A DNA stretch of 10,523 bases, from contig JAWCFL010000004.1 of NCBI GenBank assembly GCA_038858525.1, positions 101,884 to 112,406 of the forward strand, in the 5' to 3' direction. A program made the translations under genes and the position numbers. The DNA comes from Candidatus Jordarchaeales archaeon (GTDB lineage: Archaea > Asgardarchaeota > Jordiarchaeia > Jordiarchaeales > Freyrarchaeaceae). The notes under the pieces are model-generated. The model was not told where the DNA came from and did not search any database. It saw only the letters and a program-made list of their open reading frames with translations. Positions 1,188-7,804 of the stretch are shown one piece after another. Each line of letters begins with the position of its first letter. Positions within the stretch are counted from its first letter, which is position 1.

Positions 1188-1577
1188 GCAGTCACTCCTC
1201 CATATTTATTTTTCATTTCTGAAAAGAAAGCTTGGATCTTCTTCGTCCTTGCCTTCACACGTTCTGCCAAAGTATTTCACAAAACTTCTCGGTCCGTTTC
1301 ACCATCCGGTCCTTTATTTGCCAGCTGGCCCCTCTTATTGGGGGACAAGCGCCTCCACCATGACGTTTACCTGCGGCTCACTGTTTGTCTCAGATTTAAT
1401 TTCGCTGCTTTTAAAAAATAATCTTTTCGTTGTAAAGTATTATTGCTGTTCTCTTTACGCTTAGACGCTGTTCCTCTTGCCTGCTAATGACTAAACCAGT
1501 TTCTTCATGGAAGCGAAAAACCCTTATTCATTATTGTTCCTTTTTTTATGGAATGAAATTTTGAGGAGGGAATAGTT

Positions 1578-3200
1578 CTGTCTGGCGCATCTGTTGTTCA
1601 TGCCTTAAAGAGCAGGGTTGACGAGGCTAAACAGGCTTTGGACAGGAGTGTTAAAGAGATTCTCGGAAAAATTAGCGAGCTTGAGGCGTACGTTTCCTCT
1701 TCATCAGTCTCCCTGGGAGGGGCGTTGGAGGAGGCACTGAAGGGTAAGGTGGCTGAGCTTGAAGCGTCCGTCAATTCCCTCTCGGATAAAGTAGCGGAGT
1801 TCGTGAATGCTTTCTACGAACGGGAGTCATCCTCGCTGAAAGAGTTCTATGAGCTTCTGTCTTCCGTTGTCGCGTCGTCGTCGGAGTCAACGTCCTCGGC
1901 TCTTAAGGAGTTGTCTGCTTCATCCTCGTCAGCTATAAACTTAGCGGTCAGTGATGCGTCCTCGTCCAGCAAGCAGGCGGCCGGTAGCGTGGCTAGGCTT
2001 GTTGGGGAGCAGAAAGGAGGAACTATGGCTAGAGTTGATGAGCTGGTTTCATCGCAACTATCAGCATTCAAAAGTAAGGTTTCCACCATTGAGAAGTCCA
2101 CCTTTGACCTCATAGACTCCTCCTCGTCGCTATCTGCTGAAGCAATCAGCAGGGCGTCAAGCGTCGTCCAGTCAGCTGTTTCGGACTTGGTGGCGCAGCT
2201 TCAGGACATGCAAAGGCGACTGCACGACGTCGGCGTCTCCCTTCAAGGTAGCTTGGAGGAAGCTAAGAACAGAGTTTCCCAAGAGTCGGAGAAGGCTAAG
2301 AAGAGAGTTGATGAGTCATTCAGGCTCGCCATATCGGACGTGGAGAAGGGCTTCTCATCTTTTAGCGGCGAGGTAAAGCTCAGCATTGAAAGGCTGGCAT
2401 CATCGGTGTCAAGCTTGGTGGAAGGAGAACTTAGCAGCTTAGCCTCAAAAATAGAAGGTGTACTAAGAAACGTGAAGAAGGAAGTGGAAGACTCCCTATC
2501 TTCGGCCTCAGAAAAGGTCAAACGAAGCTTGATGGATGCTCAAAACCAGGTTTCCGTGAGGCTTTCAGAGTCTTTGGAATCAGGCAAGACATCAACGGCA
2601 GAACTTGTAAAGAACGTTGAAGAGGAACTATCAAGAGCCCTGAAAACAGTAGGCGAGATCAGCTCTGAGGCTTCAAAGAAGGTTTCCTCAGTCCTCTCGC
2701 CTCTCAGCCAGAAGGTTACAGGCGAGCTAGAAAGCGTTAAGGCTAAAGTTGAGGAGATCGTTGGAACGATGAAGAGCATAGCCTTCACGGAGATAGTGGG
2801 CGTGGGACTTGTCGCAGGCTACGGCAACGTTAAAGAATACCTAAGGCAGTTAGTTAAGTCAGCTAAGTCCTCCCTCTTGCTCGTGATCCCAAATGTGGAG
2901 ACAGGAGATGTGGAGGCCATATTATCCATAAATCCCAGGGTGGCGCTTCAAGTAGCAGCTTCAGGGGACCCAGCCCTCCTAAGGAAGATCGCCTCTAGGC
3001 CAAATACTACTCTAAGAGTCCTATCGTCAGAAGAAGAAAAAATGCTGGGCGCCGTGAAGGATAGAGAAGAAGCTGTGTTTGCTTGGATACCCCCAAAAAG
3101 GGAGCAAACGGTTGCCATATGCAGCACGCTAGAAGGGTACATAGAGGAGTTTTCGAGGCCAATAAAGGAAACATGGTTTAAAGCGAAAAAATTAGAGTAA
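1578..3200 (+). CDS. Ser-rich 11-mer (hendecad) repeat helical protein with a C-terminal TrmB-effector/PLD-like domain; probable CTG start at 1578 (track start: TTG 1638)
   Basis: The frame is open from 1557, after TGA at 1554. SD GAGGAGG at 1563-1569 precedes the in-frame CTG at 1578. 11-residue hydrophobic periodicity runs over ~1749-2771. The C-terminal segment VAGYGNVKEYLRQLVKSAKSSLLLVIP...DREEAVFA...F..PIKETWFKAKKLE has the TrmB C-terminal/PLD-fold pattern without an HKD motif. Confidence 0.85.
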   Translation: MSGASVVHALKSRVDEAKQALDRSVKEILGKISELEAYVSSSSVSLGGALEEALKGKVAELEASVNSLSDKVAEFVNAFYERESSSLKEFYELLSSVVASSSESTSSALKELSASSSSAINLAVSDASSSSKQAAGSVARLVGEQKGGTMARVDELVSSQLSAFKSKVSTIEKSTFDLIDSSSSLSAEAISRASSVVQSAVSDLVAQLQDMQRRLHDVGVSLQGSLEEAKNRVSQESEKAKKRVDESFRLAISDVEKGFSSFSGEVKLSIERLASSVSSLVEGELSSLASKIEGVLRNVKKEVEDSLSSASEKVKRSLMDAQNQVSVRLSESLESGKTSTAELVKNVEEELSRALKTVGEISSEASKKVSSVLSPLSQKVTGELESVKAKVEEIVGTMKSIAFTEIVGVGLVAGYGNVKEYLRQLVKSAKSSLLLVIPNVETGDVEAILSINPRVALQVAASGDPALLRKIASRPNTTLRVLSSEEEKMLGAVKDREEAVFAWIPPKREQTVAICSTLEGYIEEFSRPIKETWFKAKKLE

Positions 3201-3209
3201 CTTTATTTT

Positions 3210-5045
3210 TCATATTCCTTTTTCTACGAGTTCCAGTATTCCAAGTTCTTCCAGCTTCTCTCTCGTCGGGATGCCGTCACGGCTCCATCCTCTAAGCTCA
3301 TAGTAAGTGTCTAGCATGCGCTCGTAGCTTTCAGCATCAAGCTTTACGCCCTTAAATGGGCCGCTGGGAAGTGGCTCGTTGAATACCCTCTTGGGAGGAT
3401 AGTCGTCTTTGCGTGATACCCCTCGCCTCACGCTTATCATCCTAGTCAAATTGAATATTCTCTCCGAAGCCTTCAGTATCTCTTTCTCGCTAAGGTTTAT
3501 GCCCGTCGCAGCAACATAGAAACCCACATAGTACTCGAAGGGAAGCTTAGTTTCGCACCATGGGAACCTGCAGACGCCAAGCGCATCGAAAAGACTTCTC
3601 TGATGCTGGAGAAGTATCTGCACCTCAACCTTCTCTCTGCCCGTCCCCAGCCTATCGTTCCTAGACTCCCACCCTATTATCGTCGACCTGTTATGGTGCG
3701 CTCCAACGTCACACGTTCCGTAGGCGAGGCTCATGCCGGGAGCAGCCCTAGTCTCGTAACCTGACTGTTCAAGCCCCTTAACATGCATAGCGTAGTTCTC
3801 ACAGCCACCTCCAATGATCTCAGCAGCTCTCCTCACGCCCTCAGCAAGTATGCCCCCTATACCCCTGCGGTAAGCGATTCTCTCAAGAAGGCTAAGAATG
3901 GTATCCCTGTTACCCCACTCGGGCTTCAGCCCGTCAAGGGTCAGCAGGCCGCGCTGAGCACACTCTATGGCGAAACCCACAACCACGCCAGCTGATATGG
4001 CGTCCATGCCATAGTGGTCGCACAGGTAATGAGCCGCGACAAGGTCATCCACGTTGCTGACACCCAAGTTCGAGCCAAGGAGCGCCATCGTCTCGTACTC
4101 CGGTCCGTCCAAATAAAATGTTTCGCCATTCAGTTTCACCTCACTAATAGTCCTGCAGGCTATTGGACATGCAAAGCACCCCCTCTTACCTCTCATGACC
4201 TTCATCTCGACAGTGCTGGCACTTATGCCTTCAGCCCCCTCAAAGACACTCTCAGCGAAATTCCTCGTTGGCAGACAGGCAACGTCCTGAGCCCAATCCA
4301 ACGTCATCATCGTTCCATACCTGCTGAACTGCCCAAAAAGCTCCCTATTCTCTATTATTCTTTCTTTTGCCTCTTCAAGTAGCCTCAGGAGACCCTCCCT
4401 GTCAGCCACGGGGACTTCTGCGTCTCCATCAAAGACTACGGCCTTGAGGCCCTTAGACCCCATGACCGCCCCTGTTCCTGTTCTGCCAGACTGCCTCCCG
4501 TAGTCGCTGGTTACACAGGCGAATAGGACAAGGTTCTCTCCTGCTGGCCCTATAGTTAGGGTTGCAACGCCACTTCCATGCTCCTTCCTTAGCTCCTCCT
4601 GAGCCTCTATACTGCCCTTCCCGACAATATGGGAGGCATCCCTGAGCTCCACGCAATCATCGCTGACGTAAAGATAAGCGAACTTTTTCCTCCAACCCTT
4701 AATAACCACGGCATCGTATCCGCACTGCTTAAGCTTCAATCCTGCATATCCGCCTACAGCGCTGTCCCCCCATATTCCTGTAAGCGGGCTCAGAGAACAA
4801 ACCGAAATTCTAGGTCCAGGCACCGGTAGCCCCGTCAGCGGACCAGCAGCCAGCACAAGAATGTTCTCCGGTCCAAGTGGATCAGTGTATTTGCCTGTAT
4901 GCTCCCAGATCATTTTTGCCCCGAATCCTCTTCCCCCTATGAACTTCAGCCACTCGTCCTTCTCTGTTGTCCAATCAATAACCTTGTAGCTGCCATCACC
5001 TACATCAACGACGAGTATCTTACCAATGTATCCGCCCTTCATCAC
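3210..5045 (-). CDS. aor: Tungsten-containing aldehyde:ferredoxin oxidoreductase (AOR/WOR family)
   Basis: GGRGFGAK, SPLTG.WGDS..GG, GRTGTGAVMGSKGLKAV, Fe-S ligands CFACPIAC plus GVCRF, GPEYET, GMDAIS, HVKGLE, C-terminal YYELRGW...GIPT.EKLEELG. 611 aa. Confidence 0.96.
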   Translation of the reverse strand: MMKGGYIGKILVVDVGDGSYKVIDWTTEKDEWLKFIGGRGFGAKMIWEHTGKYTDPLGPENILVLAAGPLTGLPVPGPRISVCSLSPLTGIWGDSAVGGYAGLKLKQCGYDAVVIKGWRKKFAYLYVSDDCVELRDASHIVGKGSIEAQEELRKEHGSGVATLTIGPAGENLVLFACVTSDYGRQSGRTGTGAVMGSKGLKAVVFDGDAEVPVADREGLLRLLEEAKERIIENRELFGQFSRYGTMMTLDWAQDVACLPTRNFAESVFEGAEGISASTVEMKVMRGKRGCFACPIACRTISEVKLNGETFYLDGPEYETMALLGSNLGVSNVDDLVAAHYLCDHYGMDAISAGVVVGFAIECAQRGLLTLDGLKPEWGNRDTILSLLERIAYRRGIGGILAEGVRRAAEIIGGGCENYAMHVKGLEQSGYETRAAPGMSLAYGTCDVGAHHNRSTIIGWESRNDRLGTGREKVEVQILLQHQRSLFDALGVCRFPWCETKLPFEYYVGFYVAATGINLSEKEILKASERIFNLTRMISVRRGVSRKDDYPPKRVFNEPLPSGPFKGVKLDAESYERMLDTYYELRGWSRDGIPTREKLEELGILELVEKGI

Positions 5046-5048
5046 CTG

Positions 5049-5378
5049 TCACCTCAGTCTCAAAGCTCCCTTAGGACACTTCTGGACGCATGCAGGCATA
5101 TCAACTCCTAAAGACTCGCAGAGGTCACAGTTCTCTAGGAATATGACCTCAGCAGTTGGAAGTTTGTTCTCAACTCTTAACCTTGCACTTGAAGGGTTCA
5201 GCGAACTAGTATGCTCCACGGCGCATGCAACCATGCACAACATGCACGCAGTGCATCTCTCCGGCATTAGGAAAATGCGCCTGCTTCCATTCGAATTTTC
5301 CTTTTCAAAATTAGGTTTCGACTCAAAAAGCGTCGTGTTCAGGTAGAAATTCAGTCTAGCACTTCGGAAGGCAACCAC
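5049..5378 (-). CDS. 2x[4Fe-4S] ferredoxin-like subunit co-transcribed with aor; start position uncertain
   Basis: CTACMLCMVAC and CDLC...PACVQKCP (8 Cys). The stop lies 3 nt before the aor start. The first ~30 codons do not resemble ferredoxin sequence. Confidence 0.88.
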   Translation of the reverse strand: MVAFRSARLNFYLNTTLFESKPNFEKENSNGSRRIFLMPERCTACMLCMVACAVEHTSSLNPSSARLRVENKLPTAEVIFLENCDLCESLGVDMPACVQKCPKGALRLR

Positions 5379-6030: not shown

Positions 6031-7194
6031 CTATTTTTCTTTCGCGGCGTGTTGCTCTATTATGGTCCACGAGTATATTGGCCCATATTTTTCCTCAGCT
6101 TTCTTATCATACTCCCCCTCTATCAGGGGTTTAGGATCCTTAAACACTAATCTAGTTATCATGGATGCCTCCATGGAGAATTTCGGGTAAAACTCTATGA
6201 ACTTCGACGACGGCTTAAGTGCTTCTTCGACATGTTTATAGTACTCTTCTAGGTTCGGCCTCCTTGTCGCCTCGAGAAAGAGCGCCATTAGTTTCTCGTC
6301 TTCGTTCCTTGGTGTGGTGTACTTTATGGATGCAGGTAGCATTCCTTGTATGACCCCATTCATATCGTTAATTATCAGCTTCAGCAGCCTTTGCCTAGTT
6401 TCAAAAGTCATTAGTAGTGGTTCGTTCACAGTCTGAAAGACAAAGTAGCCAGTGGTCTCGATGCCCCGCTTAAGAGCTGAGACCCCCCTGCTCACGAAGA
6501 GAAGTATCCCGCCTAAGCAGTGAGGCGAGTCCGTGCAGAACGTGTCAAATGACCCCTGAAGCTCCTCCGGGAGCGGGTGGACGAGGTTATGCTTGTACGT
6601 CTCTATTTCCAGCCCGTATTTTTCTGAGAGCTCTCTTATTCCCTCTAGGAGCCTTTCGTCTAAATCTACTACGACGACGCGCCTCGGTCTTCCTAGGAGA
6701 CTGCACGTGACGCTCAGGAAGTCATCATCCCCTATGAATATCATTTCTTTCCCATCAACATCTTGGAAAGACTGCATAAACGCGAATTTCCTCATTAGAC
6801 TGTCGCGATTTATTGGGAGTTGCGAGAACTCGTATATTATCCCCATATCCCTCTTTCTCAAAGTGTCTTCGAGCGATTCAGCCCTTGGGAAAGAATAAAC
6901 GGTTCCCCTAATTTCGAGCTCGACAAGTGACTTTACATCCCACTCAACTTTGGACGTGAGTCCGACAGTTAATCTTTCACTGTTAACTTTAAGCATACCC
7001 TTATAATACAGGAAACCTAGAGCAGCCATAACAGATAAAACTTCCATCTTGCACGCTATTCCCCCTATAGTGGTTTCTCCCTCAAGTATCCTGAGCAACC
7101 TCAGCACCTCATAAACCGTCAGGTTCGGATCGTCAGCCACGAAAGCCTTGCAAGCCTCTACCATTTCATTCACGAATTTCTCGTCTACTCTCAG
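6031..7194 (-). CDS. bpsA: Branched-chain polyamine synthase homologue (N4-bis(aminopropyl)spermidine synthase, DUF43); probable CTG start at 7194 (track start: GTG 7173)
   Basis: IFIGDDDFLS, VVVDLDERLL, PLPEELQGSFDTFCTD, FVSRGVSALK and GYF follow the Thermococcales BpsA pattern. SD GGAGGTGG (7207-7200) lies 5 nt before the in-frame CTG, which directly follows an in-frame TAG. Confidence 0.85.
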   Translation of the reverse strand: MRVDEKFVNEMVEACKAFVADDPNLTVYEVLRLLRILEGETTIGGIACKMEVLSVMAALGFLYYKGMLKVNSERLTVGLTSKVEWDVKSLVELEIRGTVYSFPRAESLEDTLRKRDMGIIYEFSQLPINRDSLMRKFAFMQSFQDVDGKEMIFIGDDDFLSVTCSLLGRPRRVVVVDLDERLLEGIRELSEKYGLEIETYKHNLVHPLPEELQGSFDTFCTDSPHCLGGILLFVSRGVSALKRGIETTGYFVFQTVNEPLLMTFETRQRLLKLIINDMNGVIQGMLPASIKYTTPRNEDEKLMALFLEATRRPNLEEYYKHVEEALKPSSKFIEFYPKFSMEASMITRLVFKDPKPLIEGEYDKKAEEKYGPIYSWTIIEQHAAKEK

Positions 7195-7223
7195 CTAAAC
7201 CACCTCCAGCTTCTCTCCAAGGA

Positions 7224-7254
7224 ACCTGAGCCACGCTTAACGCGTAGCCCAGGC
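7224..7254 (-). other. 13-bp intercistronic stem-loop between speD and bpsA
   Basis: Minus strand GCCTGGGCTACGC-GTTAA-GCGTGGCTCAGGT. Its three G-U pairs work only on the transcribed (-) strand. Confidence 0.6.
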
Positions 7255-7260
7255 GCTCAG

Positions 7261-7620
7261 TCATTCCTCCTCATCTATTAGTCCTCTTTTTATCTCGATT
7301 TCCATGTGGCGTCTAGCCCTCATTCTCGATATAATATGGCGGTAAGCCTCCCAGCACTTTCCAACGTCGCCGCAAGTGAATATGTCTATCGCCGCATACC
7401 CGTCCTCTGGCCAAGTGTGGATCGACACATGGGACTCTGATATCAAAATTATGCCGCTAACACCCACAGGCTCGAACTTGTGGAACTTCACGTCCAGAAC
7501 GTTTAGCCCAGCTATCTCTGTCGCCTCCATGAAAACTTCCTTGATAAATTCCAAGTCATCTAAAACCTCCGGGTCCGCGAAAACCTCACCTATAATGTGG
7601 TGTCCCCTAGGAACCATCAT
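7261..7620 (-). CDS. speD: S-adenosylmethionine decarboxylase proenzyme (class 1B, pyruvoyl-dependent)
   Basis: GHHIIGE, HKFEPVGVSG, self-cleavage motif ISESHVSIHTWPE, DIFTCG. SD GGAGGTG (7633-7627) lies 6 nt before ATG 7620, so the track start at 7629 falls inside the SD. The archaeal arginine-decarboxylase paralogue cannot be excluded from motifs alone. Confidence 0.9.
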   Translation of the reverse strand: MMVPRGHHIIGEVFADPEVLDDLEFIKEVFMEATEIAGLNVLDVKFHKFEPVGVSGIILISESHVSIHTWPEDGYAAIDIFTCGDVGKCWEAYRHIISRMRARRHMEIEIKRGLIDEEE

Positions 7621-7804
7621 CACTACCACCTCCCTTCACTTTTACGAGAAGAGAAGTGAAGGACTCCGCACGGGGCGGGGAGACAGCGGAAAGACGCACG
7701 AGGCGCAGAATGAGAAACATACTAACGGCTACCCAACCCCCAGATGGGGCGGTCACCGACTCACAAACCGCTGAGTAATTGGGTAGCCAAACTCGTAGTA
7801 CCAT
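7607..7804 (-). CDS. Possible 65-codon upstream ORF spanning the speD leader and overlapping the speD start out of frame
   Basis: ATG 7804 is preceded by AAGGGGAG, and the frame is open to TAG 7609-7607. No recognisable protein family, so translation is unproven. Confidence 0.3.
   Translation of the reverse strand: MVLRVWLPNYSAVCESVTAPSGGWVAVSMFLILRLVRLSAVSPPRAESFTSLLVKVKGGGSDDGS

Follow-up and report, generated by a model that had tools for sequence, protein, structure and literature searches.

The stretch of DNA analysed here (the window, 10,523 nt, positions 101,884–112,406 of contig JAWCFL010000004.1) comes from a Candidatus Jordarchaeales archaeon whose genome assembly is 2.09 Mb in size and 92.7% complete. 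Its subject is the gene at 1578–3200(+), whose product, here called the rod protein, belongs to a large family of hendecad rod proteins that derive from TrmB in Asgard archaea; we term this family stretched TrmB, and the rod protein is one of its headless members. Residues ~11–399 are a nearly Pro-free alpha-helical region with 11/3 periodicity and a hydrophobic stripe at the a/d/e/h positions; a predicted TrmB-type domain follows. We think it probable that this protein of TrmB descent has a structural or adaptor role in the cytoplasm and that its rod is folded back on itself. Residue numbers for the rod arms, turn and C-terminal domain (C-domain) refer to the 540-residue protein counted from 1578. 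The parts of the gene are as follows.

1578–3200 (+): probable full rod gene, 540 codons plus stop, from ortholog N-termini and the upstream open frame
1608–2219 (+): first rod arm, helix, residues 11–214, from the AlphaFold DSSP assignment and periodicity
2181–2207 (+): most conserved rod segment by conservation score, residues 202–210, motif SDLVAQLQ, at the geometric midpoint
2220–2237 (+): predicted turn, residues 215–220 (HDVGVS), predicted local distance difference test score (pLDDT) below 50, with the largest phase slip (~60 degrees), from AlphaFold and phase analysis
2238–2774 (+): second rod arm, helix, residues 221–399, in hendecad register, with the single conserved Pro (SPLSQ), from AlphaFold and alignment
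2802–3197 (+): C-terminal alpha/beta domain, residues 409–540, predicted TrmB/TrmBL2-type PLD-like fold without HKD, from AlphaFold, Foldseek and VIA-align

Periodicity of the rod was measured first on the open reading frame (ORF) listed at 1638–3200(+), which has 520 codons, begins with TTG at 1638 and places window positions 1749–2771 at its residues 38–378. A first-pass annotation had cut these residues into 11-mers in a single register, and the spectrum bears this out: Kyte-Doolittle hydrophobicity gave a Fourier peak at 3.67 (11/3) with power 459, about nine times stronger than the best peaks of 200 shuffles (mean 51 ± 10.5, maximum 88). Over residues 1–378 of the same ORF the 3.67 peak had power 488 (shuffle best-peak mean 53 ± 14). 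The spectrum contained a harmonic at 2.2, and a heptad peak was absent from it. In the annotation's register the positions it had called hydrophobic or small, 4, 8 and 11, were V, I, L, M, F, Y or W in 71%, 69% and 60% of 11-mers, respectively; positions 1 and 7 held such large hydrophobic residues in 38% and 35%. These five positions are adjacent on the 11/3 helical wheel, forming the hendecad a/d/e/h core plus one flanking position. The rod thus shows the 11/3 periodicity, hydrophobic a/d/e/h positions and many repeats that define a hendecad coiled coil. The composition noted earlier was also correct: 84 of 378 residues (22%) are Ser, with one Pro and neither Trp nor Cys.

The periodic region proved longer than the ~31 uninterrupted repeats first described, running from about residue 11 (window ~1608) to ~2774, or ~35 hendecads. 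Nor is it uninterrupted. Local hendecad phase stayed within −9 to +73 degrees across the region (coherence 0.94), and its largest slip, ~60 degrees or 0.6 residue, fell exactly at the rod midpoint. No DNA tandem repeats were found in 1550–2800, and in the protein lag 11 alone beat a register-preserving shuffle (0.495 vs 0.159 ± 0.087). We therefore attribute the rod to position-specific periodicity and not to recently duplicated repeats. The idea of a hendecad helical rod in an archaeon is upheld both by the 3.67 period and by an 84% identical ortholog, the closest one, in a Candidatus Jordarchaeum metagenome-assembled genome (MAG).

The C-domain identifies the lineage. Residues 409–540 were modelled by AlphaFold (14-sequence alignment) with pLDDT 85–92, and a Foldseek search of the PDB placed TrmBL2 chains on top (5bpi, E 5e-10), then the PLD-family nucleases Nuc and NucT, then TrmB. 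VIA-align superposed it on TrmB 2f5t with Z 15.2 and a root-mean-square deviation (rmsd) of 2.6 A over 130 residues; other scores were Z 15.0 for NucT (13.7–15.0 across Nuc and NucT), 14.0 for 3qph and 13.9 for TrmBL2. The Pfam model PF11495 matched below threshold (E 0.0077, 15.9 bits vs a cut-off of 22.2). A PLD-like C-domain following a coiled-coil helix, as in the TrmB family, is thus seen by structure, the sequence evidence alone being sub-threshold. The HKD motif (HxKxxxxD) is missing, with zero His in residues 409–540. As modelled, the region is a TrmB/TrmBL2-type PLD-like domain that is predicted to be catalytically dead. The sugar/effector-binding beta-barrel of TrmB proper is absent: the protein ends after the PLD-like subdomain, and the 2f5t match covers chain residues 110–242 only.

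At the other end we could find no DNA-binding head. The TrmB winged helix-turn-helix (wHTH) model PF01978 had no match in the rod protein at E ≤ 1, and the AlphaFold helix already starts at residue 11. A hidden Markov model (HMM) of the family's wHTH heads found nothing in the rod protein or in the 390 nt upstream. A split upstream wHTH gene was sought in ORFs 1092–1421 and 1249–1464 and in all six frames of 1188–1640; they showed nothing.

A word-index homolog search gave two matches only; an exhaustive profile search gave 173 at E ≤ 1e-3, and 151 of these sequences supply the family counts below. The same C-domain (domain E < 1e-5) occurs in 58 of the 151, nearly all with 200–1165 residues before it and a period peak at 3.66–3.68. 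By the head HMM, 37 of the 58 representatives carry an N-terminal TrmB wHTH and 21 are headless. PF01978 scored above threshold in P0017, P0029 and a 1307-aa paralog from the same genome (L005:5278–9201, contig C1 of G000, ~20277–24200). In that paralog a PF01978 head (42.6 bits) is followed by a hendecad rod of ~1070 residues, with a coherence of 0.97, and by the shared C-domain; the paralog matches rod protein residues 181–509 at E 9e-11. The rod protein is therefore homologous to proteins with both TrmB end domains. Its full-length AFDB-cluster matches are likewise named as TrmB N- or C-terminal-domain proteins with long rods. We found no description of the protein or the family in the searchable literature on Asgard TrmB and coiled coils, archaeal hendecads, archaeal PF01442 and Jordarchaeia; the stretched-TrmB family is apparently undescribed.

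Headless orthologs are present within the genus and the family, in each of the six sister-family genomes (26–28% identity) and, beyond these, in four or more further families of the phylum, with lengths of 538–543 aa and one of 561. Rod indels among them are mostly of 11 residues and tend to be compensated; since total length is also held, we take this as selection on rod length and register. In P0006 and L023, 11 residues are gained near alignment column 40 and 11 lost near column 147, relative to other orthologs, the total still being 538 aa. One 49% ortholog lies in a record labelled 'Thermoproteota archaeon' (L025, JAPDJY010000053.1) with the synteny Ssb-OB / two Ras GTPases / rod / AFOR, as in Jordarchaeum; the label is probably wrong, the record likely being an Asgard MAG instead.

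Several lines of evidence bear on the shape of the rod. AlphaFold modelled two helices in the rod protein, residues 11–214 and 221–399, at a rod pLDDT of 60–71, and also two in a 27% identical ortholog from a complete genome (G006), residues 11–205 and 211–403 with a break at 206–210, at a rod pLDDT of 75–87. Rod geometry was read from structural matches of these monomer models. Matches were found to the maxi antifreeze protein 4ke2 (rod model Z 11.3, rmsd 3.7 A, 190 residues, model residues 118–311; G006 model Z 12.0, rmsd 2.0 A, 194 residues), MCP 2ch7 (Z 12.2 over model residues 47–383; G006 model Z 13.8) and the Smc coiled coil 5xg2 (Z 10.8 over model residues 98–331; G006 model Z 11.8), these Z values reflecting geometry only and lying in a range common to all long helical hairpins. 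The G006 model further matched PrgA, Smc and Rad50 hairpins, and the antiparallel-hairpin superpositions were symmetric about residues ~208–215. The first-pass annotation had weighed an MCP or SMC fragment as a competing identity. Its geometric half stands, as the hairpin is like such a fragment; sequence membership in either family does not. An ESM Atlas feature search with the rod protein gave no usable match.

The midpoint stands out in sequence as well. A smoothed BLOSUM sum-of-pairs score over eight diverse orthologs reached its rod maximum, 1.93, at residues 202–210 (rod mean 0.84, C-domain mean 2.09), and the D/L/V/Q/L/Q columns of this segment are invariant in the ortholog alignment. 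The geometric midpoint of helix 11–399 is residue 205. Across 44 family rods of 277–1069 residues the largest phase jump fell at 0.4–0.6 of rod length in 23, where ~9 were expected. Six close orthologs, which are not independent observations, had jumps of 57–92 degrees at 0.49–0.52 of rod length. In head-bearing P0041, P0029, P0021, P0040, P0114, P0049, P0052, P0144 and P0032 the phase flips by ~135–180 degrees at 0.40–0.55 of the rod. A flip of this size does not fit a continuous single-stripe helix and speaks for a genuine break within the family; in head-bearing members it could mark the fold-back point from sequence alone. A special midpoint is expected if the rod folds back or if it forms a dimer with two-fold symmetry; a lipid-lying helix or a parallel bundle does not predict one, so conservation and phase favour the first two. 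From these models a fold-back rod of ~29 nm appears likelier than a single helix of ~58 nm, and the continuous ~50-nm helix first proposed is probably twice too long, given two ortholog models that fold at the midpoint and a midpoint marked by both conservation and phase.

Mirror complementarity of charge and hydrophobicity between the arms was also tried and was uninformative: 171 of 300 block shuffles went as low as the observed minimum (r −0.40, centre 210.5). A homodimer prediction with two copies of residues 36–535 scored 0.00, without controls, and was used as evidence for neither shape.

Comparison with known systems places the protein between several of them. Like TrmBL2 and TrmB (5bpd/5bpi, 2f5t, 3qph), it is predicted to have a PLD-like alpha/beta C-domain preceded by a coiled-coil helix, and like TrmBL2 it stops after the PLD-like subdomain, without a sugar-binding barrel. 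Unlike them, it has no winged-helix head or other recognised DNA-binding element, and its ~390 hendecad residues contrast with their coiled-coil helix of ~30. The MCP hairpin and the SMC/Rad50 arms are long antiparallel fold-back rods of conserved length with the tip most conserved, as predicted here, and resemble the models in geometry (2ch7, Z 12.2–13.8 over 309 residues; Smc 5xg2/5nnv, Z 10.8–11.8). Identity to them is 4–12% (7–12% for 2ch7), however, and the periodicity of the rod protein is hendecad, not heptad. No MCPsignal domain was among the Pfam matches at E ≤ 1, and no SMC_N, AAA or hinge domain was matched in the rod protein, whose ends are a bare helix and the PLD-like domain.

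Exchangeable apolipoproteins (ApoA-I/A-IV/E, apolipophorin-III) share the 11-residue amphipathic periodicity and give sub-threshold HMM matches, but the rod protein has no Pro-punctuated 22-mers, class-A charges or signal peptide. Perilipin-4 and alpha-synuclein have a very long, Pro-poor 11-mer periodicity with many small polar residues, as does the rod protein. It differs from both in having no match to their Pfam models at E ≤ 1, bulky V/L/I at 60–71% of three positions, a midpoint discontinuity and a TrmB-type domain. Archaeal parallels in periodicity are the right-handed or untwisted coiled coils of the tetrabrachion stalk and the E–G peripheral stalk of the A/V-ATPase (PMC3293630), rigid spacer rods with 11/3 periodicity and an a/d/e/h core; they have no sequence relationship to the rod protein, and theirs are parallel separate chains where an intramolecular antiparallel hairpin is predicted here.

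The start of the gene probably needs reassignment. The reading frame is open from 1557, and the 20 codons upstream of TTG 1638 encode LSGASVVHALKSRVDEAKQAL, a sequence that can be aligned with every ortholog N-terminus. Where the window has CTG 1578, the orthologs have an ATG or TTG start, and where the nearest relative (84% identity) has its ATG, the window has GTT 1575. A putative ribosome-binding element lies just upstream.

1565–1569 (+): GGAGG, Shine-Dalgarno-like, 8 nt before codon 1578, read from the sequence

The conserved N-terminus (window 1572–1640) has no canonical start; the next one, TTG 1638, would cost 20 conserved residues. The start may be non-canonical, the assembly may contain an error here, or the protein may be shortened.

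The rod gene is divergent from a small GTPase gene and convergent with the gene for AFOR (aldehyde:ferredoxin oxidoreductase).

669–1187 (−): divergent Rab/Ras-like small GTPase, PF00071 E 3.5e-53

The GTPase has intact G1–G5 motifs (GDPAVGKT, DIGGQE, NKSD, SAK). It lacks a C-terminal Cys, which excludes prenylation as its membrane anchor, if it is membrane-associated at all. Every same-family (f1) relative examined, the most distant at 49% identity, keeps the order Ssb-OB / GTPase / rod / AFOR. The six genomes of the sister family f2 (26–28% identity) keep rod and AFOR together, but with an HTH_24 protein upstream and no GTPase nearby, and beside the remote orthologs of G026 and G033 there is neither a GTPase nor an AFOR gene. 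As judged from gene order, then, the GTPase–rod adjacency appears to be no deeper than ordinary short-range synteny. In G006 the GTPase's place is taken by a 288-aa protein (L021:9955–10821(−)), encoded on the same strand as the rod gene and 215 nt upstream of it; its unassigned N-terminal ~140 residues (which include LSGFISAIVSFSEELL) precede an HTH_24 winged helix, and it did not match the TrmB head HMM. AFOR, which with a 4Fe-4S ferredoxin forms the pair at 3210–5378(−), is the sole rod-gene neighbour conserved at the order level. Further along, 6031–7629(−) holds genes for AdoMet decarboxylase and branched-chain polyamine synthase (BpsA), which fit a thermophilic lifestyle.

The account that we consider probable runs as follows. 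A TrmB-lineage protein would have lost, or never had, its winged-helix DNA-binding head. Its rod would double back at the midpoint, two antiparallel helices of ~190–200 residues each forming a coiled coil with almost no twist and a length of ~29 nm, the hendecads serving helix–helix packing and not lipid binding. Folding back would set the N-terminus beside the C-domain and expose the conserved tip SDLVxQLQ, much like the chemoreceptor and SMC-arm hairpins. Oligomerisation, for example into a dimer of hairpins, would be driven by the PLD-like domain and perhaps also by the broad hydrophobic stripe. The protein would then be a spacer or scaffold of fixed length with two surfaces for interaction, one at the conserved tip and one on the C-domain. 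Such a scaffold or adaptor role is, from the models, the most likely one.

Several observations weigh against the fold-back, and some of them also support a different assembly. Distant orthologs have no conserved Gly or Pro at the turn; the turn lies ~10 residues apart in the two AlphaFold models, where pLDDT is below 50, and the predicted template modelling score is 0.32–0.33; a monomer AlphaFold run may halve any long amphipathic helix; the midpoint slip in the subfamily, only ~60 degrees, is tolerable in a continuous helix; and the six close orthologs, as said, do not count separately. The rod could instead be one continuous ~390-residue helix paired antiparallel with a second copy, giving a two-fold symmetric rod of ~58 nm, capped at both ends by a PLD-like domain, that would act as a bivalent spacer or bridge. 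The coiled-coil helix of TrmB itself pairs antiparallel between two monomers (F81/I91', F84/L88'; PMC4158304), and a domain-swapped dimer of this kind would have the same residue pairing as the hairpin. Such a dimer agrees with the near continuity of register through the midpoint (coherence 0.94) and the lack of a helix breaker there in distant orthologs, would place the conserved midpoint equally well at its dyad axis, and would be invisible to a monomer AlphaFold run. Yet both models break the helix near the midpoint, and the ~135–180-degree jumps of several family members do not suit it; we rate it unlikely. Less likely still by a good measure, in our estimate, is that the headless protein modulates the same-genome head-bearing paralog through a C-domain heterodimer, as a dominant-negative or capping subunit. 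PLD-fold domains commonly dimerise, as is established for Nuc, the 1307-aa paralog offers a partner with wHTH, rod and C-domain in the same genome, and G002 and G004 also have both headless and head-bearing forms. The two proteins share only ~26% identity over the local match spanning their C-domains (residues 181–509), however, their rod lengths differ threefold, and their genes lie on different contigs with no common context.

The first-pass annotation had favoured an apolipoprotein- or perilipin-like lipid coat: a giant amphipathic 11/3 helix lying flat on a lipid or membrane surface, coating or tethering it as do apolipoproteins, perilipin-4 and alpha-synuclein. The 11/3 periodicity, Ser/Ala-rich flanks and near lack of Pro are in keeping with this, as are sub-threshold matches to Apolipoprotein, ApoLp-III and phasin-type models and a mean hydrophobic moment of 0.37 (shuffled 0.17 ± 0.02). 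But the Apolipoprotein model PF01442 scored 46.6 bits (E 4e-12) on the rod protein against a threshold of 90, and 103 bits, above that threshold, on the wHTH-bearing 1307-aa paralog. Because the score is higher on a protein with a DNA-binding head, PF01442 reports hendecad periodicity and not apolipoprotein homology, and its match on the paralog is likely a false positive. A PDB sequence search similarly returned weak periodicity-type matches to LXG, ZorA-like, apolipophorin-III, apoA-IV and keratin proteins at E ≥ 1.8e-4, with 1aep and 9hx4 at E ~2–3e-3 and the apolipophorin-III and apoA-IV matches at E 2–4e-3. By HeliQuest-type measures the rod has a mean <H> of 0.21 and a slightly negative net charge, and 15% of 22-residue windows passed the lipid-binding discriminant (D > 0.68). 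The class-A pattern, with Lys/Arg at the polar/non-polar interface and Asp/Glu at the centre of the polar face, was absent by wheel position, and one Pro in 390 residues leaves no Pro punctuation. Three strongly and two half hydrophobic positions per 11 fit an a/d/e/h coiled coil, a lipid coat predicts no special midpoint, and the rod is homologous to rods of TrmB-family relatives that bear DNA-binding heads. We regard the lipid coat as the least probable of the alternatives. Memberships in the MCP, SMC, perilipin, synuclein and LEA families were considered and are unsupported by the Pfam matches at E ≤ 1. The remaining alternative, by analogy with the binding of golgins by Rab and Arl, links the rod protein, as effector or tether, to the adjacent Rab-like GTPase, whose GTP form would bind the rod or the C-domain. 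The head-to-head arrangement with an intact Ras-family GTPase, and the gene order Ssb-OB / GTPase / rod / AFOR, kept by every relative examined at the Jordarchaeaceae level, speak for it. Against it are the six f2 genomes without a GTPase beside the rod gene, the G026 and G033 orthologs without either neighbour, and the many such GTPases in Asgard genomes, which make chance adjacency likely. On balance we find it improbable, and find slightly more so the stricter version in which the protein would be a dedicated effector, recruited in a nucleotide-dependent way through its tip or PLD-like domain, a prokaryotic counterpart of golgin/EEA1-type tethers.

Long coiled-coil rods are rare in prokaryotes; the organisation of eukaryotic cells relies centrally on them to tether, to scaffold and to organise chromosomes. 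A family of regulators, TrmB, has in Asgard archaea become a set of hendecad rods of fixed length, some with a DNA-binding head and some without. The headless form indicates that rod and PLD-like domain are a functional unit by themselves, of a length conserved across an order, and it is the simplest member from which to learn what the rod does. Matches of archaeal proteins to the Pfam Apolipoprotein model, as this family warns, may signal an 11-residue periodicity and not lipid transport. Were the link to the GTPase real, it would have a direct bearing on how tethering under GTPase control arose, in the archaeal lineage nearest to eukaryotes.

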